From positions 1 through 25,743 of the forward strand of contig JBDHAC010000051.1 of the NCBI GenBank assembly GCA_039588275.1: a stretch of 25,743 nucleotides of DNA, read 5' to 3'. The notes beneath the pieces are model-generated. The model searched no databases. It saw only the letters and a program-made list of their open reading frames with translations, and had not been told where the DNA came from. A program made the translations under genes and the position numbers. The DNA is from Gemmatimonadota bacterium (lineage in GTDB: Bacteria > Gemmatimonadota > Gemmatimonadetes > Palauibacterales > Palauibacteraceae). Of this stretch, positions 1 through 17,858 are shown in pieces (within the stretch, counting starts at the first letter, position 1; each line of letters starts with the position of its first letter).

Positions 1-20
1 CGCCTCCACCAGCCGACGGC

Positions 21-105
21 ACATAACAGGACCACTGGCGGCTCGGGCGGGAGCCCTCGCCCAACCCGGCTAACGCCGGGTTCGCCAGTGGCCGAGACGT
101 TAGCT
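21..105 (+). repeat. attC-like site 1
   Basis: ACATAAC-AGGAC-CACTGGCG...AACCCGGC-TAAC-GCCGGGTT-CGCCAGTG-GCCGAGAC-GTTAGCT. Confidence 0.85.
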
Positions 106-197
106 GAAATCGTCTCAGCCTCAGTGTAAGCAGAAAGCCCGACATGAATCGGTCGTCGGAGTTCGAGATCGGGTCTTAAGGCGGTTGAGTCAGGTTG

Positions 198-527
198 ATG
201 GCGACTGTCGAGACAGCATGGAAGAAGTCGGACGGTCCGGTCCGATACCACAAGAGCGAAACCGGGGTGGAACTCGGCGACCGTATCGAGGTCCGAGGCA
301 TCATCCGGAGGCGTCGCGGCATTGTGAACTCTGTCCCCGGAATCTCGGAGCCCCATCCGGAGATGGAATTCAACGCTCTCTACTGGGTCGGGATTTCGTT
401 CGACAACGGTACGTTCACAGGTGTTCTGGTTGATCCGGATACCGGCTGCGTATTGAAGAAGGTCGTGTTTCTCGGGCGTGGTTCTCCGGACCCAGAGCGG
501 CGTCTACCCGACGCACCCTTCGAGTAA
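198..527 (+). CDS. Hypothetical protein (cassette cargo)
   Basis: The one protein-like ORF filling the space between sites 1 and 2. ATG 198 preferred over TTG 195. No family recognised. Confidence 0.7.
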   Translation: MATVETAWKKSDGPVRYHKSETGVELGDRIEVRGIIRRRRGIVNSVPGISEPHPEMEFNALYWVGISFDNGTFTGVLVDPDTGCVLKKVVFLGRGSPDPERRLPDAPFE

Positions 528-570
528 GACGGCAGGCCGGCTTGCCGTGGTGCCGGGCGGCGACGACTTC

Positions 571-669
571 AGCTGACAGGACCACTGGCGGCTCGCCGCA
601 CGGAGGCGGCTCGCCCAACCCGCCACTCGCTGTGCTCAGGCGGGTTCGCCAGTGGCCGGGACGTTATGT
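571..669 (+). repeat. attC-like site 2
   Basis: AGCTGAC-AGGAC-CACTGGCG...AACCCGCC-(14-nt loop)-GGCGGGTT-CGCCAGTG-GCCGGGAC-GTTATGT. Confidence 0.85.
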
Positions 670-672
670 GAC

Positions 673-701
673 ATGACCCCGTTGGAACGCTGTGGTAGAT
701 T
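673..701 (+). promoter_or_regulatory. Putative sigma70 promoter inside the hicBA cassette
   Basis: ATGACC (673-678), 17 nt, TAGATT (696-701) with an extended TG at 693-694, followed by RBS GGAGGAGG and ATG 720. TA cassettes typically carry their own promoter. Confidence 0.5.
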
Positions 702-719
702 GGTGCGCAGGAGGAGGCC

Positions 720-944
720 ATGCGCCCGAATCGAGGCTTGAAATACCGGGTTCTGATCGAACCGGAGGAAGACGGCGGGTACGTCGCTGAGGTGCCGACG
801 TTGCCTGGTTGTCTCTCGCAGGGAGCCACCCGTCAGGAGGCACTCGAGAACGTAAAGGAAGCTATCGCCGTGTACCTAGAGAGTCTCGAGGCGCACGGGG
901 ATCCAGTGCCCCCTCCCATCAGCGAAGAGATCGTAGAGGTCTAG
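720..944 (+). CDS. hicB: HicB family antitoxin (short form, no C-terminal DNA-binding domain)
   Basis: YRVLIEPEEDGGYVAEVPTLPGCLSQGATRQEALENVKEAI matches the HicB partial RNase H fold. Strong RBS. Confidence 0.93.
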   Translation: MRPNRGLKYRVLIEPEEDGGYVAEVPTLPGCLSQGATRQEALENVKEAIAVYLESLEAHGDPVPPPISEEIVEV

Positions 945-945
945 C

Positions 946-1170
946 TTGACGCGGCTTCCGGCGCTGTCCGGTCGGGAGGTGGTGAAAGCGCTGAGCCAGA
1001 TCGGCTACGAATTAGACCGGCAGCGAAGGAGCCACATGATCCTTCGCCACCCGGAGCCTCCGTTTCGCCGCCTCGTTGTTCCCGACCACAAGGAAATCCG
1101 TCGCGGAACCCTTCGCGCGATCATTCGACAGGCCGGGCTCACAGTGACGGAGTTTCTTGATCTGCTGTAA
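946..1170 (+). CDS. hicA: HicA family mRNA interferase toxin
   Basis: LPALSGREVVKAL...RSHMILRH...VVPDHKEIRRGTLRAIIRQAGL, directly after hicB. TTG start. The GSH motif reads RSH here. Confidence 0.92.
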   Translation: MTRLPALSGREVVKALSQIGYELDRQRRSHMILRHPEPPFRRLVVPDHKEIRRGTLRAIIRQAGLTVTEFLDLL

Positions 1171-1186
1171 GGGGTGGGGTCACATC

Positions 1187-1276
1187 ACATAACAGGTCCA
1201 CTGGCGGCTCGGGGCGGACGCCCCTCGCCCAACCCTCTGGCTAACGCCGGGTTCGCCAGTGGCCGAGACGTTATGT
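1187..1276 (+). repeat. attC-like site 3
   Basis: ACATAAC-AGGTC-CACTGGCG...GGC-TAAC-GCCGGGTT-CGCCAGTG-GCCGAGAC-GTTATGT. Confidence 0.85.
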
Positions 1277-1304
1277 GCAATAGCACTTCTCTAGGGGGTT
1301 CAGA

Positions 1305-1439
1305 GTGGGGATCGAACTCGAGTGGTTCAGCCTGCTGATCGTACACTTCACGTGGTGCTGGAAGAACGGGATCGACCCGTGGCGAGCCACGCCCCGGCGG
1401 AAGTACTACGAGCTTCGAGGCTGGGCGTGGTTGGAGTAA
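1305..1439 (+). CDS. 44-aa Trp-rich small protein (possibly an internally deleted cassette gene)
   Basis: GTG 1305 after AGGGGG, TAA at 1437-1439: MGIELEWFSLLIVHFTWCWKNGIDPWRATPRRKYYELRGWAWLE. Fills the cassette between sites 3 and 4. Not in the ORF track. Confidence 0.6.
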   Translation: MGIELEWFSLLIVHFTWCWKNGIDPWRATPRRKYYELRGWAWLE

Positions 1440-1468
1440 AGCAGGAGTGTCAGCGGCCGTGCTACTGC

Positions 1469-1559
1469 ATATAACAGGTCCACTGGCCGCTCCGGCCCCC
1501 GACGAGGCCTCCGCGCAACCCGGCAGGCGCCGGTTTCGCCAGTAGCCGAGACGTCATCT
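1469..1559 (+). repeat. attC-like site 4 (R' is GTC)
   Basis: ATATAAC-AGGTC-CACTGGCC...AACCCGGC-AGGC-GCCGGTTT-CGCCAGTA-GCCGAGAC-GTCATCT. Confidence 0.8.
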
Positions 1560-1631
1560 GCAATCGTGTGAGCTCCGGCACGGGGATGGAAGAGCCGTGG
1601 CGCGAGCAACAGTCGCGAGAAAGGACTCGAT

Positions 1632-2024
1632 ATGCCGTTGAGGGAACGCAGTGCGGAGCTGGCCGTCGGTTGGATCGAGGCGTGGATCAAGATGGACATG
1701 GACTGGCTCCGGCAGCGGCTGGCGCCTGACTTCATCCACGTCAGTCCGTTCGGCAGGTTCGAAGACCGTGAGTCGTACCTGACGGCGGTCGAGCCGATGG
1801 CGCGAAAGAGCGTTGTGGGGCTTACGATCAAGGAGGTAATCGCCAGCGGAAACCAAGCAGCAATCCGCTTCGAGAACAGGACCCCCAAAGGAGCGATCGA
1901 ATCCTGCGACTGGGTCCGCGTTGAAAATGACCTGATCAAGGAGATCAGGTCGTTCTATGACAGTGCTATGATCCGTGAGGTCCTGTCGCCCGCCGAGCAA
2001 GAAGGCCTCAACGGTTCCGACTAG
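1632..2024 (+). CDS. SnoaL-like / NTF2 family protein (cassette cargo)
   Basis: WIEAW..D.D.L...LAPDFIHVSPFG...CDWVRVENDLIKEIRSFYD pattern. RBS AAGGA. Confidence 0.85.
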   Translation: MPLRERSAELAVGWIEAWIKMDMDWLRQRLAPDFIHVSPFGRFEDRESYLTAVEPMARKSVVGLTIKEVIASGNQAAIRFENRTPKGAIESCDWVRVENDLIKEIRSFYDSAMIREVLSPAEQEGLNGSD

Positions 2025-2066
2025 CGGCCAACGGTGCGCCGATCACCGGTCAGGACATGCGACTGC

Positions 2067-2153
2067 AGATAACAGGACCACTGGCGGCTCGGGGCGGGTG
2101 CCCCTTGCCCAACCCGGCTGACGCCGGGTTCGTCAGTGGCCGAGACGTTGTCT
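2067..2153 (+). repeat. attC-like site 5
   Basis: AGATAAC-AGGAC-CACTGGCG...AACCCGGC-TGAC-GCCGGGTT-CGTCAGTG-GCCGAGAC-GTTGTCT. Confidence 0.85.
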
Positions 2154-2437
2154 GAGATCGTCTCGGCATAACCGTAGGTTGTTAGCGTGATACGGATGGG
2201 CGCTTCGCAGCACAATCATTAATTAGAACGACGCAAGCACATAGACCATGAAGGCGTCCTGGATATCCGTGGGTACGGTGGTTCTTGCCTGGCCTTTGGC
2301 CGCGGCAGCCGCCTCTCTCAGAGCGACGGCGTCGCGGACGTAAAGCACTTTATGTCGTAGAGTACCTTCCCGCAAGCGTTTCCGTCAACAGCCGGCGTGG
2401 CCGGTCTTATCTCCCACGCTTTGCTTGAAGTAAGCTG

Positions 2438-2710
2438 TTGGCCTCGATTCTAGCGTTGATCGCGCTCTGTGCCCTGCGGTTCGGATCTAGATTGGCAATT
2501 CCGCTCGTGTGGGTTTTCAACGTCGAGGGAACGGCAGACCTTCTGAATGCCCTGCTCCAAGGCATTCGATACACGACGGATGCAGACCTGGGTGCGACCT
2601 ACTTCAACCCGGCGGTGATCGTGCCCGCGTTGCTCGTCACGCATCACGTGATCTTCATGGTGCTGCTTCGGCCGAAAGGTCCTCCGAGTCAGGCAGAGAG
2701 CCTCGGCTGA
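2438..2710 (+). pseudogene. C-terminal fragment of a membrane protein
   Basis: Three hydrophobic segments (AIPLVWVFNVEGTADLLNA, LGATYFNPAVIVPALLVTH). Starts abruptly inside a helix at a TTG with no RBS. Confidence 0.5.
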
Positions 2711-2770
2711 GCATGGGTCGTCAGCGCGCCGGTTCCGCTAGACGGTCGTGGGGCTAGCCGAAGGGGAGTA

Positions 2771-3529
2771 ATGGTCAGACTGCTACAATCGGTTCTGTTG
2801 GCCCTTGCGGGCGTCACATCCATGTCCGCTCACGCGCCCATCATCATCCGGCACGACGCGGAAGACGAGGTACACCGCGCCCTGGCCGAGCGCTTTCCTT
2901 CCCTCGTGCACCTCAACCTCCCCGATGGCGAAGCGGTCCTCATTCGACCTGGCTGGGTGCTCACCGCTGCCCACGTCGCGACCGAGGTAGCGCCGGGTCA
3001 CGCGCTCACGGTGGGAGGGAACGAGATCGAGGCAGCCGAAGTCGTGCTGCACCCGGAGTGGAGCGATGGCGGTGTGAACGACATTGCACTGGTTCGGCTG
3101 GATCGCCGGGTCCAGCACGTTCGACCCGTAGGAGTCTACGGCGAGCGTGACGAAGAAGGGCGGCTCATCTACGTGGTGGGCCGGGGTGACACCGGGACCG
3201 GGGTGAGTGGGCCTGAGCGCAACGACGGACAAGTGCGGGCGGCCACGAATCGGGTGGACGAGGCAACGGAGTTGTGGCTCAAGTTCCGGTTCGACGATCC
3301 GCGCGACGATCCTGAAGCAGCGACCGAGCTAGAAGGGATCAGCGGCCCGGGAGACAGCGGCGGCCCCGCGTACATCGAGCTAGATGGGATCCAGTACGTG
3401 GTGGGGGTGAGCTCAGGACAGAGTACGCGAGCGACGGGCGGCCGTGAGGGTGTCTACGGCGTCACGGAATACTACACCCGGGTCTCGAGCTATCTCGACT
3501 GGATCGCGCACGTCGTCGGCGAGGATTGA
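2771..3529 (+). CDS. Secreted trypsin-like serine protease (S1)
   Basis: Signal peptide; catalytic motifs WVLTAAH, DIALVRL, GDSGGP; C-terminal YTRVSSYLDWI. Confidence 0.95.
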   Translation: MVRLLQSVLLALAGVTSMSAHAPIIIRHDAEDEVHRALAERFPSLVHLNLPDGEAVLIRPGWVLTAAHVATEVAPGHALTVGGNEIEAAEVVLHPEWSDGGVNDIALVRLDRRVQHVRPVGVYGERDEEGRLIYVVGRGDTGTGVSGPERNDGQVRAATNRVDEATELWLKFRFDDPRDDPEAATELEGISGPGDSGGPAYIELDGIQYVVGVSSGQSTRATGGREGVYGVTEYYTRVSSYLDWIAHVVGED

Positions 3530-3613
3530 GCGCCGGAACTGACCCTGAAAGGTCCGCCCGCGGTTCACCGCCGCCGCCCGCCAGCCGCTACGCTCTCGAG
3601 CAGTGGCGTAGCG

Positions 3614-4108
3614 TCATCCACACAGGATTTGCCGCTCGTGCCATTGCGCGCGGAACCCGCCTTCGACCGTGGACCCGTCCTCGAACCGCAAGCGGAAGAG
3701 CCCGGGGAGCGAGCCGTCGGGTTCCCGCGTCTGGAACTCCACGAAGCCGGACGCGGGCGGATCGCACCGAGTCACTTCCACGGTGCAGCGCATCGCACCT
3801 GCAATCCGCTCCTGGTCGATCTCGAAACGCTCGCCTCCGAGCGCGTCGGCGGGCTGATACACGGAGATCCACACGTACGGACGCCGCACCTCCGAACCCG
3901 GCGGCTCCGCGGGCCGTAGGGTATCCGCCGATAGTGCGATCCAGGTGGCGCGGCCATCCCACGGCGCGCATCCATCCATCGCGTACGCGTACGGCAAGCC
4001 GTCGGGCGGCCCCGGCGGCGGGCTCGTCTCCGATGGGCGGCAGGCGCCGAGCAGCAGGCACGCGGGCGCCAAGACCAACATCGCCTGTTGGCTCACGGGT
4101 GTCGTCAC
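3614..4108 (-). CDS. Hypothetical lipoprotein
   Basis: RBS GGAGGAGG before GTG 4108; lipobox LLGAC; beta-rich mature part. Confidence 0.7.
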   Translation of the reverse strand: MTTPVSQQAMLVLAPACLLLGACRPSETSPPPGPPDGLPYAYAMDGCAPWDGRATWIALSADTLRPAEPPGSEVRRPYVWISVYQPADALGGERFEIDQERIAGAMRCTVEVTRCDPPASGFVEFQTREPDGSLPGLFRLRFEDGSTVEGGFRAQWHERQILCG

Positions 4109-4405
4109 GTTCCTCCTCCACGGCGGCATTCGAGTGAGGCTGTAAAGATGCCACGGGAAGGGCGACCGAAGGTAGTCCTGGGCGACCCTCGGCCAGTTCA
4201 TCTCGTCACTCGATCACGGCCAGGCGAGCAACGGGACACATCCCCCGATCCCTCGCCTCAGGACGTTTTCATCGCAAAATTGTGTCATATGCATCTCGCC
4301 TCTGAGACCCGGCTGGTCGACCGCGAGCGTGCATGACCGAACATTGCTGCGACCGGCCGTTCGCGAGCTCGGGGGCACCGACCGCGATTCGGAAGGAGTA
4401 CCGAT

Positions 4406-5764
4406 ATGAGATGGCTCTTCGTGGCCGCGGCCACGACCCTGGCGGGTGTCACCCTATCCCTGGCACCCGGCGGTCTGGCCGCGCAAGACGACGGAGGGAT
4501 CTTCCCCTTCGACTACGAGCTGGTCGAGCTCGACAACGGATTCAAGGCCTACCTGATTCCCGTGAACGAGCCCGGACGGCTCGCCTACGTGAGCATGGTC
4601 CGCACCGGCAGCCGCGACGAAGTCGAGGAAGGGAAGAGCGGCTTCGCCCACTTCTTCGAGCACATGATGTTCCGGGGCACGGAGAAGTACCCGTACTACG
4701 ACGGGATCACCGCCGAGATGGGTGTGGACCGGAACGCGTTCACGAGCAACGACCGCACCGTCTACTACCTCGTCGGCAACAGCGAGTACCTCGAGCAGAT
4801 CATGGATCTGGAGTCCGACCGATTCCAGAACCTGGCATACGACGAGCCGGCGTTCCGCACGGAGGCGGGCTCGGTGTTGGGTGAGTACTCGCAGGGCGCG
4901 CTGAGCCCGGGCCGCTGGCTGAACGAGAAGACTCGCGAGACCGCCTTCGACCGGCATACCTACCGGCACACGACGATCGGTTTCGAGGCCGACGTCAGGG
5001 CCATGCCCGAGGGCTACGAGTACAGCAAGTCGTTCTACGCGCGCTTCTATCGACCCGAGAACGTGATCCTGGTGATTGCGGGCGACTTCGACGTCGCCGA
5101 GGCGACGGGACTGATCGAGCAGTACTACGGCGGGTGGGAGACTGGCTACGTGCCGCCCGAGGTCGCGCCCGAGCCGGAGCAGACCGCACCGCGCAAGCGC
5201 ACCGTCTACTACCCGGGTCGTACGCTCCCCATCGTCGCCGTCAACTACAAATCGCCCGCATGGAGCGGGACGGACAAGCTCGCAGTGGCGACGGAGGTTC
5301 TGGGGCAGGTGGCGTTCGGCTCCAACTCCGACATCTATCGCAAGCTGGTAATCGACGAACAACGACTCCAGTCCCTTAACGCCGGCTTCGGACTGCAACG
5401 CGATCCGAGCCTCGTGGACGTTTCCGCGATGGTGAAGGACCCGGCGGACATCGATCCGATCAAGGCCGAGATCCAGGCGACGATCGAGCGCTTTCAGACC
5501 GAGCTGGTTGACGAGAAGCGTCTGGAGGACACGAAGAGCAACCTGAAGTACCGATACCTCATGGGACTCGAGACGGGTCAGCAGGTCGCCTTCTCGTTGA
5601 TGACGCCGATCATCAACGCCGGCACGCTCGAGGCGATCGAGGAATACTACGCGACGCTCGCCTCGCTCACGCCCGAGGACATTCGTGAAGCCGCGAACGC
5701 GGTGTTGAAGGAGAGCGGCCGCACCACGATCACCATGTTGCAGGCGGAGGGAGGTGCCCAATGA
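4406..5764 (+). CDS. M16B (insulinase/pitrilysin family) zinc peptidase, catalytic subunit
   Basis: Signal peptide; GSRDE..GKSGFAHFFEHMMFRGT (HxxEH); NAFTS; YRPEN. Confidence 0.95.
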   Translation: MRWLFVAAATTLAGVTLSLAPGGLAAQDDGGIFPFDYELVELDNGFKAYLIPVNEPGRLAYVSMVRTGSRDEVEEGKSGFAHFFEHMMFRGTEKYPYYDGITAEMGVDRNAFTSNDRTVYYLVGNSEYLEQIMDLESDRFQNLAYDEPAFRTEAGSVLGEYSQGALSPGRWLNEKTRETAFDRHTYRHTTIGFEADVRAMPEGYEYSKSFYARFYRPENVILVIAGDFDVAEATGLIEQYYGGWETGYVPPEVAPEPEQTAPRKRTVYYPGRTLPIVAVNYKSPAWSGTDKLAVATEVLGQVAFGSNSDIYRKLVIDEQRLQSLNAGFGLQRDPSLVDVSAMVKDPADIDPIKAEIQATIERFQTELVDEKRLEDTKSNLKYRYLMGLETGQQVAFSLMTPIINAGTLEAIEEYYATLASLTPEDIREAANAVLKESGRTTITMLQAEGGAQ

Positions 5765-7374
5765 GCGCCCTGGCCAGCATCCGTTCCCGGGGACGAGCGC
5801 TTCTCACCGGCCTGACGCTGCTCGGTGTGGCCTCGGCCGCCATCACGACGACCGCCTGCGCTCCGATCGAAACGAGCGGAGGTCCCGAAGGCACCATCAC
5901 CCTGCCCGAGCCCGGCTCGCCCTACATCGCATTCAACATCTGGGTGAAAGCCGGGTCGCAGAACGACCCGGCGGGTAAGGAGGGCCTCGCCGCGCTCACG
6001 GCGTCGCTCCTCTCCGACGGCTCCACGACCGAAGACAGCTACCAGGCGATTCTCGAGAAGCTGTACCCGATGGCGGCCGGGTACGGCGGGAGCGTGGACA
6101 AGGAGATGACCGTGTTCCGCGGTCGAGTCCACGTGGACAACCTCGAGGGCTACTACACGCTTTTCAAGAACTCCCTGCTGCAGCCCGCGTTCAGCGAGTC
6201 GGACTTCGAGCGGGTGAAGTCGCAGATGCTCAATTATCTCGAGCGCGGGCGCCGTTACAGCCGCGATGAAGAGCTCTCCAAGGAGCTGCTCTTCTGGTTG
6301 GCGTACGAAGGGACGCCGTACGAGCACCCCGAAGAGGGCTACGTCGAAACCGTAGAGTCGATCACCCTCGATGACGTGCGTGCCTTCTACGACCAGTACT
6401 ACGTCCGCAACAACATCGTCGTGAGCGTCGGGGGCGGGTACCCGGACGCGCTTGTCGAGCGGGTGCGTGCCGACTTCGACCTGCTGCCCGAGGGCGAGTC
6501 GGCAACCGTGAGCGCACCCACGCCGCTGATGCCCGAGGGCGTAAAGGTGCTGATCGTCGAGAAGGACACGAAGTCGACTCCGATCTCGTTCGGGTTCCCG
6601 ACGACCCTCACGCGGGGAGACGACGACTTCTTCGCGTTGATGACCGCGAACTCGTGGTTCGGAGAGCACCGCAACTCGTTCAGCCGCCTGTACCAGGTGA
6701 TCCGCGACGAGCGCGGCATGAACTACGGGGACTACTCCTACATCGAGGCGTTCCCGCGGGGGTATACCACGCAACAGCCGCCGGTCAACGCCGCACGCAG
6801 CAGCCACCTGTTCGAAGTGTGGATCCGTCCGATCTCGCTCACCGAGCCGGACAACCTCCACGAGCGCTCGCTGTTCGCCACGCGGGCGGCGATGCGCGAG
6901 CTGGAGCACCTGGTCGAGACGGGGATGACGGAGGAGACGTTCGAAGCGAGCCGCAAGTTCCTCCACAACTACACGCAGAAGTACGGCACCACGGTCAGCC
7001 GCCGACTGAGCTACAAGGTCGACGACGAGTTCTACGGTGTGGGCGGCGATGGCTTCCTGGCGTCGATCCGGCCCGGGCTGGCCGACCTGTCCCTGGAGGA
7101 GGTAAACGAAGCGATTCGTAATCACCTCCAGACCGAGAACATGTGGGTCGTGTTCATCACGGCTGACGCGGAGGGGATGAAGGAGTTGCTGCTGAGCGGC
7201 GAGCCGACGCCGATCACATACGCGGGCGCCAAGCCGGACGAGCTGCTGGCCGAGGACATGGAGATCGCGGCCTTCCCGATCCCGGTCGACGAGGACGACA
7301 TCACGATCCTCGGGATCGAGGAGGTATTCCAGAGCCCGCGGGCGACGCCGACGGAGGTCGTCACCGACGAGTAG
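5761..7374 (+). CDS. M16B peptidase, non-catalytic partner subunit
   Basis: GSQNDPAGKEGLAALTASLL (no HxxEH); SRLYQVIRDERGMNYG with the R/Y pair; ATGA overlap with the upstream gene. Confidence 0.92.
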   Translation: MSALASIRSRGRALLTGLTLLGVASAAITTTACAPIETSGGPEGTITLPEPGSPYIAFNIWVKAGSQNDPAGKEGLAALTASLLSDGSTTEDSYQAILEKLYPMAAGYGGSVDKEMTVFRGRVHVDNLEGYYTLFKNSLLQPAFSESDFERVKSQMLNYLERGRRYSRDEELSKELLFWLAYEGTPYEHPEEGYVETVESITLDDVRAFYDQYYVRNNIVVSVGGGYPDALVERVRADFDLLPEGESATVSAPTPLMPEGVKVLIVEKDTKSTPISFGFPTTLTRGDDDFFALMTANSWFGEHRNSFSRLYQVIRDERGMNYGDYSYIEAFPRGYTTQQPPVNAARSSHLFEVWIRPISLTEPDNLHERSLFATRAAMRELEHLVETGMTEETFEASRKFLHNYTQKYGTTVSRRLSYKVDDEFYGVGGDGFLASIRPGLADLSLEEVNEAIRNHLQTENMWVVFITADAEGMKELLLSGEPTPITYAGAKPDELLAEDMEIAAFPIPVDEDDITILGIEEVFQSPRATPTEVVTDE

Positions 7375-7387
7375 CCAGAAACGTTCT

Positions 7388-7431
7388 CTCACGGGGGCGC
7401 GGGGTGCGTGTACCGCCGCGCCCCCGGTGAG
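7388..7431 (+). terminator. GC-rich hairpin after the M16 operon
   Basis: CTCAC-GGGGGCGCGG...CCGCGCCCCC-G-GTGAG inverted repeat starting 14 nt after the stop. No clear U-tract. Confidence 0.45.
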
Positions 7432-7582
7432 TGGAATCGTACCCACCTGGACCATCGTGCCGTGTAAGATCCGGCGTTCTCACGGCATCCTTTACATAGG
7501 ACCCAGCCGCATGGGCCGCGGCGGGACGCGGCCCCACGCGCGGCGAACGTCCGCCCTCGACATCGAGCTCCGGTCAAAGGCG

Positions 7583-7627
7583 ACACTCCCGCAACTAGCC
7601 TTCGGGAGTGTACGAGTTATGTGCCAT
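7583..7627 (+). other. Candidate attI-like entry site of array 2
   Basis: Hairpin ACACTCCCG/CGGGAGTGT, then ACGA-GTTATGTGCCAT. The GTT arm is complementary to the left arm of site 6, but no full repeat precedes it. Confidence 0.5.
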
Positions 7628-7628
7628 T

Positions 7629-7904
7629 ATGAGGGAAGGAGGTGAGGTGCCTCACCGCCAGATACGTAGCTTTGAAGTCTCTGGCGCTCACTGGATTGCT
7701 CGGCGGCAGGAGCCAGCCGAGGGTAATGCCTCTTCTCGCCCCTCTTCTATTCATCATCCCGAGGCCGGCATTTGGTTTGAGAGTACCAGAGGAGAGCATC
7801 GATTCCTGAAGATGGACGAGGACGAACTTCCGGATGCGAGTGAGTTTCGAAGCCTGTCGGGACTTGAGCTGGGCCGGATGCTCAAGCGTGCTATCGAGAA
7901 ATAG
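7629..7904 (+). CDS. Small hypothetical protein (cassette cargo)
   Basis: The start should lie inside the cassette: ATG 7629, or GTG 7647 after AGGAGG. Stop lies 25 nt before site 6. Confidence 0.7.
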   Translation: MREGGEVPHRQIRSFEVSGAHWIARRQEPAEGNASSRPSSIHHPEAGIWFESTRGEHRFLKMDEDELPDASEFRSLSGLELGRMLKRAIEK

Positions 7905-7928
7905 GAGGCAGAGGGTCGTCTCAACGGC

Positions 7929-8018
7929 ACATAACAGGTCCACTGGCGGCTCCGGCCGCTTCGCGGCCTCCGAGCAACTCGGCTAACGCCGAGTTCGCCA
8001 GTGGCCGGGACGGTATAT
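7929..8018 (+). repeat. attC-like site 6 (R' is GGT)
   Basis: ACATAAC-AGGTC-CACTGGCG...GGCCGC-TTC-GCGGCC...AACTCGGC-TAAC-GCCGAGTT-CGCCAGTG-GCCGGGAC-GGTATAT. Confidence 0.85.
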
Positions 8019-8040
8019 GACATTCGCTTGGCGAGGATGC

Positions 8041-8496
8041 ATGAGTAAAGCAGCGCCCCTCACGGCCTTCGTTCTGTTGTTCTGTCATTCGGCGATAGCC
8101 CAGGAGCCGAATCCCATCGGCGGCGTGACCGTGCAGTCTGTCAGACTCTCCGAGGATGTCGCGCCGATTCTCACCGGCAGGATTGTGGACGCACGGGACG
8201 GCCACCCGGTACGTGGCCTTCAGGTGCTCCTGGAAGGAACCGAGATCGGAGGGCTGACCGACCCGAACGGTTGGTTCGAGCTGAAGGGGATGGTGCCCGG
8301 CACGTGGATTCTGGGCATGCGGCTGATCGGATATGTGACCGAGACCGTGGAATTGCGATTGGAGACCGGGACGGTGACGCAAGTCCTGGCCGGTATGCGG
8401 CTCGCCAGAATCCAGGGAGCTTTCCAGTTCATCCCACCGGCTACGCCTCCCCCACCTCGCACGGATACGGTGAGTGCGCACGGACCGGGTTGGTGA
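8041..8496 (+). CDS. Secreted carboxypeptidase-regulatory-like domain protein
   Basis: RBS GAGGA before ATG 8041; signal peptide ending AIA; TGRIVDA..G.P....V.LEGTEIGGLTD.NG.F.L....PG...L....IGY. Confidence 0.8.
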   Translation: MSKAAPLTAFVLLFCHSAIAQEPNPIGGVTVQSVRLSEDVAPILTGRIVDARDGHPVRGLQVLLEGTEIGGLTDPNGWFELKGMVPGTWILGMRLIGYVTETVELRLETGTVTQVLAGMRLARIQGAFQFIPPATPPPPRTDTVSAHGPGW

Positions 8497-8508
8497 GCAG
8501 CGAACGGC

Positions 8509-8600
8509 ACATAACGGGTCCCCTGGCGGCTCCGGCCCCTGACGGGGCCTGCGCGCAAACCCGGCGTTCGCCGGGTTCGCCAATAGCCGGGACGTTATCC
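8509..8600 (+). repeat. attC-like site 7
   Basis: ACATAAC-GGGTC-CCCTGGCG...GGCCCC-TGAC-GGGGCC...AACCCGGC-GTTC-GCCGGGTT-CGCCAATA-GCCGGGAC-GTTATCC. Confidence 0.8.
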
Positions 8601-8692
8601 GCAATGGGCTTTGTGCCCGGTAATGGATTCGGCCTGAAGGATGGAGAGGAAGCTGTCGAGCACGGCAGTATCAATGTGACGAGAGTGCCGGC

Positions 8693-9136
8693 ATGAAAAG
8701 GCTGTTGATTAGCTGTCTCGGGTGTCTCGTTCTCGCGTGCGGCTTCATCACGGGCGAGGAGGAGGAAGAAGAGATCACGCGCGAGCGGCTGATTGGCACT
8801 ATCGAGTTCTACAGTGACCCGGTTCGTATCCAGCTCCCCGGTACTGTCCTGAGAGGCGTCACGTTTGATGTGACGGTGCGCACATACGGAGGCGGTTGCA
8901 TAGACAAAGGCGACACGGAGGTGGAAGTGAACGGCCTCGCGGCCCAGGTGACACCCTACGACATCGAAGTCACGCATATGCCTGCCGGGTCCGTGTGCAC
9001 GGCAGATCTGCGGTTCTACGAGCACATCGGAGAGGTTCGTTTCGATCAGTCGGGTACCGCAACGGTGGTTGTCAGGGGTCGCAAGAAGCCGCAGGACGTC
9101 ATCATCTCCGTGGAGCGAGCAGTGAACGTCCGATGA
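8693..9136 (+). CDS. Hypothetical lipoprotein (beta-sandwich-like, paired Cys)
   Basis: MKRLLISCLGCLVLAC lipobox; GGGC...VCTAD motif. Confidence 0.8.
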   Translation: MKRLLISCLGCLVLACGFITGEEEEEEITRERLIGTIEFYSDPVRIQLPGTVLRGVTFDVTVRTYGGGCIDKGDTEVEVNGLAAQVTPYDIEVTHMPAGSVCTADLRFYEHIGEVRFDQSGTATVVVRGRKKPQDVIISVERAVNVR

Positions 9137-9168
9137 GGAGTGTGTCACGGTAGGAATCGGCCCACTGC

Positions 9169-9260
9169 GTACAACAGGTCCACTGGCGGCTCTGGGCTTA
9201 GGCCCCTCGCCCGACCCCGGGCTAACGCCTGCAAGTTCGCCGGTGGCCGGGACATCAGAC
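9169..9260 (+). repeat. attC-like site 8 (degenerate; R' is ATC)
   Basis: GTACAAC-AGGTC-CACTGGCG...GGC-TAAC-GCC...TT-CGCCGGTG-GCCGGGAC-ATCAGAC. Confidence 0.75.
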
Positions 9261-9293
9261 GCCATTCCGGCGCGTCCGGGGTGAGCATATGTG

Positions 9294-10154
9294 ATGGCTA
9301 ACGAGATGGAACGCCATCGGAAGAGACCTCACCGCCGCTTCACGGCAACCGTGATGGTGGCTTCACTGCTGACGGTCCTGTTCGGCTGCGACGGGTCGAC
9401 GGGTCCAGCCACGCAGCTCGCCGGCACGTTCGGTCTGCTCGAGTACGAAGGGAGCATCGTCCCCGTCGACGAGGGTCCGCTGCCGCCGCGGTCTGGCGGC
9501 GTTTCGAACTGCCATATGATCGTGGCCGACGGGGCGCTGTCTCTGGATCCCGAAAGGCGACGATTCGCGCTCCACTATTCAGTGCGACGATCGTGTGACA
9601 GCGGAATCCTGAGCCAGCCGGGGGAGACAGGCGACTATCGGCCATCCAGCCGGACTCTACGCTTCGAGTCGACGATCGGAGAATTCGACGGGCGACTACG
9701 AGAGGATGGGTCGATCGCGGTCGAGTTCTTCGACCGCACGCTCGTGTTTGGCGGAGCGGCGCACCTTTCGCCGAGGGCGGAGGGTCAATATGAGCTCGTC
9801 GATCTCGCGCAGCTCCCGATCGAGCACGCCGGCGTCGGGAGTCCTCCAGCGGAATCGAGCTGCCCTTTGTTGGTCGATCATGGGATCTTGAGCCTGCGGC
9901 CGCTCTCAGGCCGAGCGATGACGGGTCGGTTCGACATAGACTATGCCCTCCGTTCTTCCTGCACCGACGAGATACGAACGAAAGCCGACGAGTCGGGCAG
10001 CTACGAGCAGGTGGCGGGCTCGCTCACCTTCGCGGGTGAGATCAGCCCGAACGTCGTGCACCCGTTTCGGGGGCACGTGGGTGAGCGGGCGATCGTGCTC
10101 TTCATTGGGCACGATCTGATGTTTCGCTCGGCGGTCGCTGCCCCTGGGCAATGA
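9294..10154 (+). CDS. Hypothetical lipoprotein with two tandem homologous beta domains
   Basis: Lipobox LFGC; internal duplication with two Cys per copy. Confidence 0.8.
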   Translation: MANEMERHRKRPHRRFTATVMVASLLTVLFGCDGSTGPATQLAGTFGLLEYEGSIVPVDEGPLPPRSGGVSNCHMIVADGALSLDPERRRFALHYSVRRSCDSGILSQPGETGDYRPSSRTLRFESTIGEFDGRLREDGSIAVEFFDRTLVFGGAAHLSPRAEGQYELVDLAQLPIEHAGVGSPPAESSCPLLVDHGILSLRPLSGRAMTGRFDIDYALRSSCTDEIRTKADESGSYEQVAGSLTFAGEISPNVVHPFRGHVGERAIVLFIGHDLMFRSAVAAPGQ

Positions 10155-10174
10155 AGGGCCGCGGCCCGAGCGGC

Positions 10175-10223
10175 GTCTAGCAGGTCCACCGGCGGCTCGG
10201 GGCCGGTGCCGGGGACGCGGCGA
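10175..10223 (+). repeat. attC-like site 9 (degraded/shortened)
   Basis: GTCTAGC-AGGTC-CACCGGCGGCTCGGG-GCCGGTG-CCGGGGAC-GCGGCGA. Left half clear, right boundary uncertain. Confidence 0.6.
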
Positions 10224-10255
10224 TCCTGGCCGCGCCCTCGGGTAGCCCCGGCTTC

Positions 10256-11203
10256 TCATAACGCGATTGGGCGGGTCTCGGACTGGCCCCCGACCGACGC
10301 TCCGGCGGACCGGGTGACCTCCCGATAGATCTGCTCCAGGCCCACGGGGCGTACGGAGAGCGACCGGACCGCCAGATCCGCGAAGTCGTTGGCGACCCGT
10401 TCCAGGCTCTCCCGCTCGGGAAGCCACACCGTAACCGCGTCGCCAACGCTCCGGTGCTCGAAGCCGAGCGTGTCTGCCCGTTCCTTGACGGCGCCCGGGT
10501 CGTCTGCGTGGACGATGGCGAGCTCCGCCGCGGGAATCAGCGCCCGTAGCTGGGTCATCGAGCCCTCGGCCGCGATCTGGCCGCCGGCCATGATTCCGAT
10601 GCGAGCGCACAGCGCCTCCGCCTCCTCCAGGTAGTGCGTGGTCAGGAGGACCGTGGTTCCCGCCCTCCGGAGAGATTGGATCAACTCCCACAGTTGGTGC
10701 CGGGCCTCCACGTCCAGCCCCACCGTGGGCTCATCCAGGATGAGCAGAAGCGGCTCGTGCACCAGGCCCACTGCCACGTTGAGCCTCCGGTGCATGCCCC
10801 CACTGAGCGTGGCCACGAGATCGTCCGCACGGTCCTCCAGGCCCACGGCCTCGAGGCAGCGCGCGGCTCGCTCCCGCCGCCCGTCCTTCGCCACGCAATA
10901 CACGCTGGCGAAGAAAAGCAGGTTCTCGACGCAGGTCAGATGCCGGTAGAGGGAGATCTCCTGGGGCACCACACCGATCGTTGACGGAGCGCGGGAGGCC
11001 AGCGTCCGGCCGTCCAGCCGCACTGCTCCGCCGTCGGCCGTGACCAGACCGCAGATGATGTTGATGCAGGTCGTCTTCCCCGCTCCGTTCGAACCCAACA
11101 AGCCGTAGATCTCTCCGCTCGCCACCGCGAAGTCCAAACCGGTAAGGACGCGGGCGTCCCCGAACGACTTCTCCAGATCTCGTACCTCGAGCAGCGCGCT
11201 CAT
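10256..11203 (-). CDS. ABC-2 type transporter ATP-binding protein
   Basis: Walker A GSNGAGKTT, signature LSGGM, Walker B LILDEPT, TTH. Start MSALLEV overlaps the permease stop (TGATG). Confidence 0.95.
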   Translation of the reverse strand: MSALLEVRDLEKSFGDARVLTGLDFAVASGEIYGLLGSNGAGKTTCINIICGLVTADGGAVRLDGRTLASRAPSTIGVVPQEISLYRHLTCVENLLFFASVYCVAKDGRRERAARCLEAVGLEDRADDLVATLSGGMHRRLNVAVGLVHEPLLLILDEPTVGLDVEARHQLWELIQSLRRAGTTVLLTTHYLEEAEALCARIGIMAGGQIAAEGSMTQLRALIPAAELAIVHADDPGAVKERADTLGFEHRSVGDAVTVWLPERESLERVANDFADLAVRSLSVRPVGLEQIYREVTRSAGASVGGQSETRPIAL

Positions 11204-13349: not shown

Positions 13350-13484
13350 GTCATCCCACACGTGCGGGCTCGTCGAGTGCGCTCGTCGGGCCCCGTTTTC
13401 CTGCCGAAGCGGGCTGTCAGGCCGGACGAGGGCTCGTATAGATTGGCGCGGCCGAGGAATCCTCGCTCACGCACGGTCGAGCCG

Positions 13485-13928
13485 ATGCCACACGAATTCT
13501 CAGTGACCCGAAAGGTCGAGTTCGCCGACACCGACACGGCGGGCGTCGTCCACTTCGCGGCCTTCTTCCGCTACATGGAGGAGGCCGAGCACGAGTTCTA
13601 CCGCTCGCTGGGGGAGTCGGCCTACCGTTGGGAGCCGGACGGAGTGATCGGGATGCCCAGGGTCTCGGCCCGCTGTGACTTTCTTCGCCCGCTCCGTTAC
13701 CCCGCGGAGGTGGAGATCCACCTCACCGTCCGCGAGAAGTCGTCCAAGGCGATCGGCTACGACGTCGTCTTCCGGGTAGCGGACGGGGACGCAGCCGTGG
13801 AGATCGCGCGTGGAGCGATGAAGGTCGTGTACGCATCGCGAGTGCACGGGTCGCAGGATTGGGAGGCTGTGGACCTGCCACCCGTCCTTCAGGAGCACAT
13901 CGAGGTGGCGCCGGAGGTGATCGCATGA
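13485..13928 (+). CDS. Acyl-CoA thioesterase (4HBT/YbgC hotdog fold)
   Basis: KVEFADTDTAGVVHFAAFFRYMEEAE; CDFLRPLRY. Confidence 0.9.
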   Translation: MPHEFSVTRKVEFADTDTAGVVHFAAFFRYMEEAEHEFYRSLGESAYRWEPDGVIGMPRVSARCDFLRPLRYPAEVEIHLTVREKSSKAIGYDVVFRVADGDAAVEIARGAMKVVYASRVHGSQDWEAVDLPPVLQEHIEVAPEVIA

Positions 13929-14566
13929 GGTGGATCGGGAGCTCGACGTTCGCGCTTGCCGGAGCCCTGCTCCTGGCAGGCACGGCCTCGGCGCAAGGTG
14001 CGCGAGGGTTTGAAGTCGGAGCCGGTGTGGCGATGACCACGAATCCCGTCGAGGCGCTGTCTGACGAGACCTGTCCGGCCGGGACGACCTGGGCGAGCGA
14101 GGGTCGGCTGGCCTGGCGCTTCTCGCGTGCGGTCGCGCTCGAAGGTAGCACGGCCCTGCACTGGGAGTCTGCGGACGACTGCACGGATGTGGGACCACCG
14201 CTGCCTCTGGGCCCGTTCGAGCGAACCGTGCGCGACTACCCGGACGGCTACCCGTTCACCACGAGCGACGTGCGGCTCGCGTTCGAGCCCTCGAGTCCCA
14301 GCGGGACGACTTGGTTCCGCGCGTTCGGAGGCTGGGGCTACATGTGGGGGAAGGAGATTGGCTACTGGCTTGCCGGCGGTGGAGTGGTGTTCGGCCGTCG
14401 AATCAGGTTCGTGCTCGACGCCGAGTGGAGGTGGTTCGACGTGCCGTTCGACTCGGTCACGCAGAACTTCCTCGATGCCGTTCTGATTTCGGAGGAGGTT
14501 GTAGACACCGGAGAGGAGTCGCACAACACGTTCACGGTCAAACTCGGATTCCGGCTGCGAATATAG
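13925..14566 (+). CDS. Putative outer-membrane beta-barrel protein
   Basis: Signal peptide ending ASA; amphipathic strands; C-terminal TVKLGFRLRI; ATGA overlap. Confidence 0.7.
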   Translation: MRWIGSSTFALAGALLLAGTASAQGARGFEVGAGVAMTTNPVEALSDETCPAGTTWASEGRLAWRFSRAVALEGSTALHWESADDCTDVGPPLPLGPFERTVRDYPDGYPFTTSDVRLAFEPSSPSGTTWFRAFGGWGYMWGKEIGYWLAGGGVVFGRRIRFVLDAEWRWFDVPFDSVTQNFLDAVLISEEVVDTGEESHNTFTVKLGFRLRI

Positions 14567-14670
14567 GCTTCGATCGACTGCTGTGGCCGAGGTCGTATAC
14601 CGGCAATATATCGTGTGTAAGCCAGTTACGAAGATTACTTAAAGTAATGTATAAAGATCGCCCATGCCCG

Positions 14671-14708
14671 TGATGGGCGCCTCTGAGGGCGCCTCTGATG
14701 GGCGCCTC
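14671..14708. repeat. Short tandem repeat, 3 x TGA(T)GGGCGCCTC
   Basis: tgatgggcgcctc-tgagggcgcctc-tgatgggcgcctc. Confidence 0.85.
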
Positions 14709-14897
14709 GGGAGACCGACCGCCGCAAGAGCCAGAGAAGCGGGGACTCGGGTGTCACATTTCGCCCGTTCATGACATCTAACGGGTATAGCCGAAGAGCC
14801 GGTTTCCAGAGCGCTTGAGTTCTCGAGCGCCCGATCTGATAGAGTGATGACGCGCATCCGCGGTCGTCTCGACAACCCTGCCGTCAACACGCTACCG

Positions 14898-15311
14898 ATG
14901 GCGGTGGCGTGGCGAACTCTGTACGTACTCGCCGTGAGCCTCGCACTTGCCTGCGAGTCCACCTTTGCGCCGCCGATCCCTCCCGAGGCCGAGTGGACGG
15001 AGGGGACCTGGCAATACGTCCTAAGGGCGTGCCCGTTCGGGTTCGTTTCCGAGCCCGACGGCATCGAGCTGCTGACGCTCGAGCCGAGCGGGGACGCACT
15101 CTGGACGGTGGGCGGAAATCTCGTCTCCGTGGAGCGGTTCGAGATCCGGAGGCAGGAGGTCTACTTCGGCAACCTGCTCGTGATCGTGTTCGAGCACCGG
15201 TTCGCGGGAAATCCGATGGCCATCAGCCAAGTCCCGCCGGACACCATGAAGCTCGTGAATCCCAATGTCACGGACCCCTGCGGCTTCTATTACACACGTC
15301 CGGTCGGCTAG
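14898..15311 (+). CDS. Hypothetical lipoprotein
   Basis: Lipobox ALAC; EGTWQY lipocalin-like start of the mature domain. Start uncertain (14844-14898). Confidence 0.7.
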   Translation: MAVAWRTLYVLAVSLALACESTFAPPIPPEAEWTEGTWQYVLRACPFGFVSEPDGIELLTLEPSGDALWTVGGNLVSVERFEIRRQEVYFGNLLVIVFEHRFAGNPMAISQVPPDTMKLVNPNVTDPCGFYYTRPVG

Positions 15312-15368
15312 AGAACCATGCACGGGTGGATGAGCGCCGGTCTTGAAGGGACGCGAACCGGGACAGCC

Positions 15369-16034
15369 ATGAGCGCTCGCTCGCACCACAGACGTCAGGT
15401 CCTGCTCGTTCTCATGGCCTCCTCCGTGCTACTCCGCGCCCTGCCGTTCCCCGTACACGCTCAAGAATCTCCCGCGGCCGGGACCTCCACCGATCCGCCA
15501 GACCGATTCGCCACCACAGCCGCGCTCGGCCTCATGATCTTTCACAGACCGGAGGGCCATCACTTCGCGGAAGACCACCTGTCCTGGCTCGGGCTCGCGG
15601 CGCAGGGCGGGATCGAGTGGCTGGCGCTGATACGAGAGCCGAACGCGGCCATCGCGCTACGAGCCGACCTGGTCCTCAGCTTGGTGCCGAGTAACGGCCA
15701 CGACCATTCTCACGCGCCCGGTCCGTTCCTGGGCCACGGTTCCGTCAGGTGGCTGTTCATCACGGGCCTTCCCGTGAGCATCAGGCTCGGGGCCAGGAGC
15801 TCGAGGAGCGAAGCTCACCCCTACTTCCTGGCCGGTGGAGGACCGTACGTGGCCTCGCACAAGAGTGTCGAGAACACTCTGTCGTGGGGCTGGGCGGGCG
15901 GATTCGGCTACGCGGTCCCGATCGCCCGGAAGACGGTCTTCTTCGAGGCGAGGGTGCATCTGTTGCCGGGAGCCATGCCCGATGACGCGGAGACGCTGTG
16001 GGTGCTGCCGCTCACGGCCGGGGTGTACTTCTGA
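15369..16034 (+). CDS. Putative outer-membrane beta-barrel protein
   Basis: Signal peptide ending VHA; PYFLAGGGPY, GWAGGFGY, FFEARVH; C-terminal AGVYF. Start uncertain. Confidence 0.75.
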   Translation: MSARSHHRRQVLLVLMASSVLLRALPFPVHAQESPAAGTSTDPPDRFATTAALGLMIFHRPEGHHFAEDHLSWLGLAAQGGIEWLALIREPNAAIALRADLVLSLVPSNGHDHSHAPGPFLGHGSVRWLFITGLPVSIRLGARSSRSEAHPYFLAGGGPYVASHKSVENTLSWGWAGGFGYAVPIARKTVFFEARVHLLPGAMPDDAETLWVLPLTAGVYF

Positions 16035-16252
16035 TGCATCCGTCAACCGGCCTCCGGGGGCTTACCCCGATCCTCGCACTGATCGCCATTGCCTGGGACG
16101 GCCTTTTCGGGGGCAAGGTATGCACGCTCATCGGCGACGGGATCCTGGAATCAAGGGACGTGCGGCCCAGATACTACAAGCGGAAGCCGAACGGAGACGG
16201 CTGCGACCCCACCTGCCGAGTCGCCACGATCACCATCCTCCTGGAGTCGTGA
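16034..16252 (+). pseudogene. Probable degraded lipoprotein gene
   Basis: TGATG coupling to the upstream gene; signal-like N-terminus with IAIAW where a lipobox Cys is expected; VCTLIG and PNGDGCDPTC motifs very close together. Confidence 0.4.
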
Positions 16253-16395
16253 CGTCGCGGTTTGCCGCAAGGTGCACCGGATCGCCTCCCACAGTGTCCC
16301 AAGCCCACGGCTTCGATCGTTCTCCTTGTGCACACGATCCAATCGTCGGTGGGTGATCGACGGTCTGGTCGTGGACGGAGGATGGGGAATCGAGG

Positions 16396-16746
16396 ATGGC
16401 GCAGCGAGGCCCGGCACGGTTATCACGCCCACTCCTGGTGGGATTCGGCCTGCTCATTGGCGGGTGGGCATGCGTGAGCCTGACGGATCCCGAGGTCCTC
16501 ACCCTGTTCGTCGCGCCACAGCTGGTTGACTGCGTCGGTATCGGCCCGCAGACGTGCATGTTGGTGAAGGAAAGCCCCGACACGGATTGGACGTATTTCT
16601 ATGATGGGATCGACGGGTTCGACTTCGAGCCCGGCTTCTACTACGAGCTTCGAGTTTTGCGGCATCGGGTCGAGAACCCATCGGCCGATGGCTCCTCGTT
16701 CCGTTACGTGCTGGTGCGGCTCGTCAGCAAGATCCCGGAGGCGTGA
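16396..16746 (+). CDS. DUF4377 domain lipoprotein
   Basis: VAPQLVDCVGIGPQTCMLVKE...W.YFYDGIDGFDFEPGFYYELRV...ADGSSFRY.L. Confidence 0.85.
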   Translation: MAQRGPARLSRPLLVGFGLLIGGWACVSLTDPEVLTLFVAPQLVDCVGIGPQTCMLVKESPDTDWTYFYDGIDGFDFEPGFYYELRVLRHRVENPSADGSSFRYVLVRLVSKIPEA

Positions 16747-16802
16747 GGCGGAAGATGAGTAGGCCGACGACCGGTTCTCCAGGACGAATCGCGAAGATGT
16801 CG

Positions 16803-17171
16803 ATGATGACACACGGCGTCATCCCGATCTTCGCCCTGCTCACCGCGGCGTGCAGCTCGATCACGTTTCCCGATCGGGACCCTAACATTCAGGGCGATAT
16901 CGTAGGGGTCGGCCCCGACATCCCATTCGGGGGCGACAACACGTTCTGGGTCAAGGAGACGCCCGAATCGCCCTGCGGCATCGTGTTCACGGTGACCGAG
17001 TCGACGGACATCGGAGAGCGGCAACCCGACGGCTCGATCGCAGAGCGCTCGTCCGACGACCTGACGGTCGGGCGGACGGTACGAGTATGGGCATCGGGGG
17101 CGATCGCCGAGTCTTGCCCTGGTCAGGCGCGCGCGGCCGACATCGAGTTGATTTCGCGGCTGGAGGATTGA
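16803..17171 (+). CDS. DUF3221/YobA-like OB-fold lipoprotein
   Basis: Lipobox TAAC; DLTVGRTVRVWASGAIAESCPGQARA resembles the ESYP.QA motif. Start uncertain. Confidence 0.7.
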   Translation: MMTHGVIPIFALLTAACSSITFPDRDPNIQGDIVGVGPDIPFGGDNTFWVKETPESPCGIVFTVTESTDIGERQPDGSIAERSSDDLTVGRTVRVWASGAIAESCPGQARAADIELISRLED

Positions 17172-17828: not shown

Positions 17829-17858
17829 GCCGGCGCTCGATCGAAGGCTAGCACACGC

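Follow-up and report, generated by a model that had tools for sequence, protein, structure and literature searches.

An apparently ageing cassette array of an integron-like system in a Gemmatimonadota bacterium and its probable link to a HARP-domain tyrosine recombinase

The start of contig JBDHAC010000051.1 of a Gemmatimonadota bacterium (assembly GCA_039588275.1) raises the question of which recombinase handles gene cassettes whose sites resemble, but do not match, the attC sites of integrons. The stretch analysed, hereafter the window, is the first 25,743 nt of this contig (C51) of genome G000 (4.1 Mb, 103 contigs, 85.8% complete). It holds nine related repeats, all on the plus strand. The initial annotation offered two readings, a divergent integron lineage or a cassette system driven by another tyrosine recombinase. 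Our results favor the second, since relatives carry at the head of such arrays a tyrosine recombinase without the insertion specific to the integron integrase IntI, and the attI-like site, the cassette boundaries and the mobility of the cassettes agree with it. We suggest, with a probability of about 0.78, that the cassette array in the window is an ageing one and belongs to an integron-like system, the integrase of which would be an IntI-related tyrosine recombinase with a HARP-like N-terminal domain (HARP recombinase) that lacks the IntI insertion and acts on folded single-strand sites. The recombinase gene was not found in G000, and its role here is therefore deduced from relatives. Of these, G001 and G002 are both other genomes of the genus; further genomes (G), contigs (C) and loci (L) are numbered where needed.

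Repeat structure and cassette boundaries

In brief, a full copy of the repeat begins with a left flank ending in AAC and a 5-nt spacer. Two complementary 8-nt stem arms follow, with two inner hairpins between them, and the copy closes with an 8-nt spacer and GTT with its tail. Eight copies are full length (85-99 bp) and one has shrunk to 49 bp. Both spacers are as described in the initial annotation. The CACTGGCG/CGCCAGTG stem is also unbulged as described, but the pairing, claimed to be perfect, reaches 8/8 in four copies only; it is 7 in three copies, 6 in one and 5 in one. The consensus AACCCGGC-N4-GCCGGGTT is exact in just three of the nine copies, and a bulge proposed at GG(A/T)CC is not conserved, as it fits 3 of 21 related sites, all from one sequence family. 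In an alignment of 20 sites, 91.9% of the stem is paired and five of the eight pairs show double changes, values inflated by related sequences. Predicted folding energies favour the bottom strand in five of eight copies, with small margins.

Site 1 (21..105) shows the attC-type arrangement of 5-nt spacer, unbulged 8-bp stem, two inner hairpins and 8-nt spacer. Site 2 (571..669) has GAC as left core, and is followed by site 3 (1187..1276), site 4 (1469..1559; right core GTC, stem 6/8) and site 5 (2067..2153). Site 6 (7929..8018) has GGT as right core and a compensatory change in the second hairpin. The stem of site 7 (8509..8600) pairs at 5/8, and the right core of site 8 (9169..9260) is ATC. 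Site 9 (10175..10223) is the 49-bp remnant, in which both inner hairpins are gone and GCG stands instead of GTT; its counterpart in G002 is full length. The count of nine plus-strand repeats thus stands, with the qualification that the ninth is a remnant and that several cores are decayed. The core pattern of integrons, RYYYAAC ... GTTRRRY, is present; AAC and GTT are both intact in four of nine copies, and one or both are altered in five (right GTC, GGT, ATC or GCG; left GAC or AGC). The decayed cores fit an ageing array.

Read in the canonical attC register, with a bulge at L'' position 4 and a right spacer of 5-6 nt, all nine copies pair at just 2-3 of 7 positions, whereas canonical controls pair at 7/7. 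The extrahelical base of the L'' box is absent from the window sites, and their central spacers of 5 and 8 nt differ from the 5-6 nt per arm of integrons. It had been anticipated that standard attC models may miss such sites. This was borne out with a stand-in covariance model, built from 15 canonical sites and used instead of the IntegronFinder model: scores reached 40.6 bits for held-out canonical sites and 6.9 bits for whole sites of the window. The same model found no sites in the arrays of G021 or L030, which follow a HARP recombinase gene.

In integrons the tail behind GTT is part of the next cassette, and it is expected to match that cassette's own left flank. Over the 7 bases beyond the core in eight cassettes, the right tail of a site matches the left flank of the next site at 50 of 56 positions, against 35/56 within sites. 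This cross-site match was reached by 6 of 40,320 permutations. Without the cassette that starts at an attI-like site (see below) it is 43/49, reached by 3 of 5,040 permutations. The array of G021 behaves alike, with a mean of 5.9/7 over 14 adjacent pairs versus 3.7 within 21 filter-passing sites. The repeats in the window are cassette ends, and their sites are chimeric as in integrons.

Three cassettes of the window have copies in other contexts. The hicBA cassette (663-1281) is found in G001 with 94.5% identity over 623 bp, placed directly at the attI-like site and not behind a site 2. In G015, a copy (86%) of the cassette encoding a SnoaL-like protein follows a site and has different neighbours, and the last cassette, with an open reading frame (ORF) of 287 aa, has a 79% copy between two sites on another contig in G002. 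The locus from the M16 peptidase genes to LTXXQ lacks these cassettes in G001, where about 640 bp are found in place of 5.3 kb in the window. These comparisons indicate that cassettes move as units with exact ends between the contexts seen in G001, G002 and G015.

A loose core-and-stem descriptor gave eight matches in bases 1-10300; 200 base shuffles gave a mean of 0.78 and a maximum of 4. Searches of G000 with a DNA profile and with a covariance model, both built partly from window copies, gave nine matches, all on the plus strand of C51, and none on the other 102 contigs. An Rfam scan of the window returned nothing meaningful, with one 17-bit match. The repeats are short, GC-rich, palindromic and intergenic, as are repetitive extragenic palindromes (REP) or miniature inverted-repeat transposable elements (MITE) that have landed between genes. 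We consider such an origin very improbable, as the repeats are confined to one of 103 contigs and one orientation, match across sites and have genes that travel with them. Neither a transposase nor a REP-associated tyrosine transposase (RAYT) or insertion sequence was found among the 29 of 157 window ORFs scanned for protein families; the genome was not searched for RAYT. The initial annotation had itself named canonical scores next to a normal IntI, and scatter over the genome, as outcomes that would speak against it; neither was observed.

The recombinase accompanying the sites

A tyrosine recombinase is encoded upstream of the array, and on its strand, in L027, L030, G021 and G335; a pattern scan of the genome contigs gave 17 loci. 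Intact copies are about 375 aa long and contain a HARP-like domain, Phage_int_SAM_4 and Phage_integrase, while the copy in L027 lacks the N-terminal part in frame. The catalytic residues R, HxxR, H and Y are invariant in five aligned rows, all from relatives. In 25 of 36 rows, the N-terminal domain has a match to Pfam HARP at E<=0.01. By profile it matches the HARP domain of SMARCAL1 (4o66, E 1.5e-5), and by fold UvsW (1rif; Z 7.8, root mean square deviation 1.9, 63 aligned), XPB (2fz4, Z 6.5) and 4o66 (Z 5.7).

The K-G-x-K-x-R motif and HxxRH lie 65-66 residues apart in 24 of 26 recombinase rows (two not parsed) and 106-107 apart in 11 of 13 IntI rows (one misparsed, one not parsed). The HARP recombinases are thus without about 41 residues of the IntI-specific insertion, and the gap is visible in pairwise alignment. 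Array-head recombinases of relatives score 206-223 bits against TIGR02249, the cut-off of which is 265, and HARP recombinases score 207-215 bits against NCBIfam XerA (cut-off 220). In a tree of 48 proteins, which is midpoint-rooted and cannot order events, they form one group (support 88/84), separate from IntI (100/100) and from Xer. The recombinase structure model has VchIntIA (2a3v) as its best fold match, followed by archaeal XerA. Some short recombinases (L230-L232 of G387, L052 and L202) fall outside the HARP clade, one of them about 2 kb from a canonical attC.

Two arrays that follow these enzymes may be described in more detail. On plasmid 1 of Rufibacter tibetensis (NZ_CP012644.1; L235 9231-14826) a homologous recombinase is followed by eight small same-strand genes with 68-69 bp sites in the register of 5- and 8-nt spacers (5/8 register). 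A long array in G021 (G021:C1:742700-780500; L053-L055) has at least three families of site sequence, in which the cores are about 92, 146 and 86-150 bp apart. All of them keep the 5/8 register, and the array includes short repeated cassettes of about 340 bp.

We surveyed 113 genomes of the family, counting the recombinase at E<=1e-80. The recombinase was found in 12 genomes and the repeat in 13, with 8 genomes having the two together (P 1e-6); when the five genomes used for the models are removed, the figure is 4/9 (P 7e-4). IntI is present in 20 genomes and together with the repeat in 3 of the 13 (P 0.7), which is about chance. The genomes are incomplete and related, and because kin are not independent these P values are overstated. 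In both G001 and G002 the HARP recombinase is followed by an attI-like site, and no IntI scores over the cut-off. Across the family, the repeat tracks the HARP recombinase and not IntI.

A second survey used 79 metagenome loci picked by the protein alone; 76 had the catalytic end, and 70 of these were distinct. The distinct loci gave 12 perfect 7-bp stems in the 5/8 register, distributed over nine loci and all located downstream on the strand of the gene (163 kb). The other three orientations gave no such sites, and one canonical site was found. Registers with a right spacer 4 longer were also enriched. The stem sequences differ widely yet remain paired.

As controls we used Gemmatirosa and class 1 integrons, because the eight IntI loci of close relatives are without arrays and useless for this purpose. 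The IntI of Gemmatirosa plasmid 1 is accompanied by 25 canonical sites, none of which pairs at 7/7 in the register of the window, and class 1 cassettes pair at 6-7/7 in the canonical register. Around 20 IntI loci of the phylum we found six canonical and two unbulged sites, and one of the latter is a copy from G226. In close relatives and G333 no cassette array was detected near the canonical IntI genes (L163-L170, L196-L197), which look In0-like; the arrays sit with the HARP recombinase.

These results bear on a more conventional explanation, that the window is an ordinary attC cluster with no integron integrase (CALIN), in which a canonical IntI located elsewhere acts on odd attC sites and the HARP recombinase is either a passenger or a second user. 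IntI is common, being present in 118 of 301 genomes of the phylum (a tally that includes two unpublished genomes, G133 and G217, on which no other claim rests), and with G000 at 86% completeness a copy might have been missed. G000, G001 and G002 are nevertheless all without an IntI over the cut-off, the attI-like site adjoins the HARP recombinase gene, and the chance-level overlap with the repeat and the mostly canonical sites at IntI loci argue in the same direction. We therefore judge this explanation unlikely.

Several observations weigh against our interpretation, and those on G226, G333 and IntI1 lend weight to the CALIN explanation. In G226 an array (L207, G226:C3:395700-405100) follows a true IntI on the same strand, and its right spacer is 8 nt long. 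Of its six printed copies, four keep the canonical bulge, one has lost the bulge and fits the register of the window, and one is degenerate. G333 carries both enzymes, its IntI being without a nearby site. IntI1 recombines some attC sites efficiently when all bulges are deleted (PMC5027507). The association of repeat and recombinase is incomplete, as five of 13 repeat-bearing family genomes have no recombinase and four of 12 recombinase-bearing genomes no repeat. For G334, G332 and the second copy in G335, no descriptor-passing site was found within the 20 kb fetched. Homologues in G332, G334, G355 and G011 match only from profile position 80-85 and are without the HARP part. The support for the HARP recombinase clade is only moderate, and G000 itself, as described below, has no such gene.

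The array of G226 looks like a structural bridge; a single deletion seems to separate the two kinds of site. Two candidate diagnostics were rejected: the 8-nt right spacer, since it is present beside the true IntI of G226, and the same-strand layout, which is also found in G226 and Gemmatirosa and counts likewise against our interpretation. The G226 array leaves the missing bulge as the distinguishing feature, rather than spacer length or gene orientation. Many cassettes in this array are without clear ORFs.

Two sub-arrays and an orphan attI-like site

The array in the window is in two parts, divided by chromosomal genes and an orphan attI-like site. Site 5 closes the first sub-array, and is followed by a broken ORF without a closing site. 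The non-cassette interval (2771..7374) contains a gene for a trypsin-like protein (2771-3529, plus strand), a minus-strand gene (3614-4201) and a pair of M16 peptidase genes (4406-5764 and 5761-7374). The part from 3613 to 7374 is syntenic chromosome in G001, G002 and G015, and copies 5 and 6 lie 5.8 kb apart.

The orphan attI-like site (7584..7625, plus strand) contains a motif at 7601-7620 that ends in GAG followed by TTATGTGCC, and its tail matches the flank of site 6 at 7/7 bases. The crossover would fall between G7616 and T7617. We place it within GTT because just 5' of the G the sequences of attI-like and cassette sites no longer agree; they have only GTT and a short tail in common. The site is homologous to the one just 3' of the HARP recombinase gene, about 140 bp behind it in G001 and about 210 bp in G002. 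An attI-type site beside the integrase gene, with insertion within GTT, is characteristic of integrons, and is found in G001, G002 and L027; the window has the orphan homologue. A second orphan copy lies near a contig start in G000 (G000:C43:951-970; L183), with no cassette site after it.

A GTGTAAGA...GGCATC motif precedes the orphan site in the window (7462..7495, plus strand). It also occurs in G001, where it lies at the stop codon of the recombinase gene, and in G002, where it is upstream of the attI-like site. There are five strict copies in G000 (window, C3, C15, C43 and C65), two of them upstream of attI-like sites, that on C43 by about 190 bp. The motif looks promoter-like, and is possibly an alternative-sigma promoter. 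A scan of 7300-10400 for sigma-70 promoters gave no match. A partial copy at 4140-4160 faces the minus-strand gene 3614-4201.

As the initial annotation stated, no integrase is in view. G000 has seven PF00589 matches, of which none is an IntI over the TIGR02249 cut-off, and neither profile nor tblastn searches found a HARP recombinase; the closest matches are XerC/D-like genes. The annotation's advice to look left of position 1 led nowhere, as the window opens at the first base of C51 and the sequence beyond is unreadable. The genes upstream of the recombinase in G001 match C94 of G000 up to the contig end, 2.3 kb short of the position of the gene. Synteny with G001 places C58 before C51, with a gap between the two. 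In the last 110 bases of C58, the stop codon of a RidA-like gene is followed by an 8-nt spacer and GTTAT resembling the right half of a site, and G001 diverges there. The array may start at the end of C58 and cross the gap into the window. No half-sites were found at other contig ends of G000. Assembled contigs of two public runs (X1 and X2) gave no joints and were uninformative, although one X2 contig extends 94 bases left of position 1. The recombinase gene may lie in an assembly gap or may have been lost.

The XerC/D-like genes bring in a further explanation, in which real cassettes would be inserted either by host XerC/XerD acting on a folded strand, as happens with phage CTX, or by the HARP recombinase in a plain reaction with two exchanges on double-stranded DNA. 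The CTX site is without bulged bases (PMC4792948), and the HARP recombinase scores near XerA. Against this, the stems vary freely but stay paired, which fits a reading of structure and not of a fixed dif-like sequence; the attI-like and cassette sites share little more than GTT; and the arrays track the HARP recombinase although Xer is universal. We find this explanation improbable, more so than the CALIN one.

The initial annotation described the repeats as separating single small plus-strand genes. This holds for part of the array; one cassette carries a gene pair, another a short ORF only, and the chromosomal genes intervene between copies 5 and 6. All cassette genes are on the plus strand. 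The cassette 100-663 has a 109-aa ORF (198..527) without a Pfam match. The cassette 664-1270 encodes a toxin-antitoxin pair, hicB (720-944) and hicA (946-1170). It is followed by the cassette 1271-1553, with a putative 44-codon ORF (1305..1439), and the cassette 1554-2147, encoding the SnoaL-like protein (1632..2024). The first cassette after the attI-like site (7617-8012; pre-site part 7617..7928) has no clear gene and is probably decayed. The cassette 8013-8594 encodes a protein with a carboxypeptidase-regulatory-like domain (8041..8496). The cassette 8595-9254 has a 147-aa ORF (8693..9136) without a Pfam match and with a lipoprotein-like start by eye, and the cassette from 9255 has the 287-aa ORF (9291..10154), also without a Pfam match. 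A toxin-antitoxin pair and small or exported proteins are usual cassette cargo. PADLOC gave no hits among seven proteins of the cassette region.

Some further observations were made. The cassettes after sites 1 and 5 (99-120 and 2147-2167) share the start CTGA(A/G)ATCGTCTC(A/G)GC, which is able to pair with the right spacer of the site, and the cassette after the G001 site begins in the same way. The region 13410-18716 has small plus-strand genes (thioesterase, DUF4377, DUF3221, methyltransferase and CAAX protease) with the look of cassette cargo, but is without sites; its synteny with G001 and G002 is partial. G000 also shares with G001 a dispersed repeat (about 600 bp, 66-74% alike), probably an insertion sequence, which in G000 is found on C5, C13, C19, C26, C31, C76, C92 and C98.

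A possible mechanism and comparison with known systems

Cassettes run from one GTT core to the next and are inserted at an attI-like site, which in relatives is on the strand of the recombinase gene. From here on we propose the following. Site anatomy and covariation suggest that a site is recognised in folded single-stranded form, in which AAC pairs with GTT, the central loop is uneven (5 versus 8 nt) and the stem is unbulged. Cutting would affect one strand, inside GTT, and replication would then resolve the junction, as happens with IntI (PMC4792948). We speculate that the uneven loop selects the strand and blocks the L-side subunit and a second exchange, in place of the bulged bases and the IntI insertion. 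The HARP domain could perhaps be an accessory binder of the single/double-strand junction or of the branched top of the site; whole HARP proteins bind forks and single/double-strand junctions (PMC4035279).

With less confidence, we lean towards a broader reading, that these arrays represent a second integron class found across several phyla. It would combine a sister recombinase of IntI without the insertion (I2) and folded bulge-less sites, with the strand set by the uneven loop and a HARP-like junction binder. It would be missed by IntI and attC models and be a living intermediate for the problem of how I2 and the bulges arose. The co-origin of I2 insertion and bulged bases has been called a paradox that functional intermediates would resolve (Escudero et al. 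2016, PMC4792948), and a system that shuffles cassettes without either would make this question testable. The IntI insertion serves to define integron integrases, and if our interpretation is true, integron surveys undercount gene-capture platforms. Rufibacter tibetensis, a cultured strain with the recombinase and same-register sites on a plasmid, offers an experimental handle. The window, though without the enzyme, contributes orphan attI-like sites and, within one genus, exact moves of cassettes.

We found no description of the present system in the literature searched, a search in which subscription papers for the most part, and supplements, were outside the scope; the supplements of PMC8138268 and PMC4889954 may list these proteins. 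The standard definition of integrons is restated in PMC9024848 and PMC8618304, insertion-less recombinases near attC sites were dismissed by Cury et al. (PMC4889954), and archaeal integrons carry the insertion (10.1101/2022.02.06.479319). For the 'integron-like' subgroup of Smyshlyaev et al. 2021 (PMC8138268), compared by description only, the accessible text calls the insertion essential to the function of integrons and also not fully conserved; it does not mention HARP or tie an insertion-less member to arrays.

Phage CTX, which exploits Xer, likewise has a folded single-strand site without bulged bases and an enzyme without the I2 domain (PMC4792948). It differs in using host XerCD at dif and having no integrase of its own, whereas in relatives of G000 a dedicated recombinase lies beside a multi-cassette array with variable stems. 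The N-terminal domain appears related to the damage-recognition domains HARP, UvsW N-terminal and XPB, by sequence and by modelled fold (Z < 8), and is here fused to a recombinase instead of an ATPase.

The integrons of Gemmatirosa plasmid 1 and G226 belong to the same phylum, and likewise have the integrase on the strand of the array and long branched site tops, in G226 with the 8-nt right spacer; they differ in having a true IntI and a bulge at the 9th base after AAC. With sedentary chromosomal integrons and CALIN the window shares AAC/GTT cores, folded sites after each gene, cross-site complementarity and promoterless cassettes that include a toxin-antitoxin pair. The insertion site beside the recombinase gene in relatives, and VchIntIA as top fold match, are further likenesses to sedentary chromosomal integrons. 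Unlike those of IntI integrons, the window sites are without the L-box bulged base and have a right spacer of 8 nt, not 5-6 (PMC5027507), and the recombinase lacks the IntI domain of roughly 35 residues (PMC4889954) and has a HARP-like N-terminus. Since two defining features of IntI integrons, the insertion and the L-box bulge, are missing, we do not class the system among them; in its working it appears integron-like.

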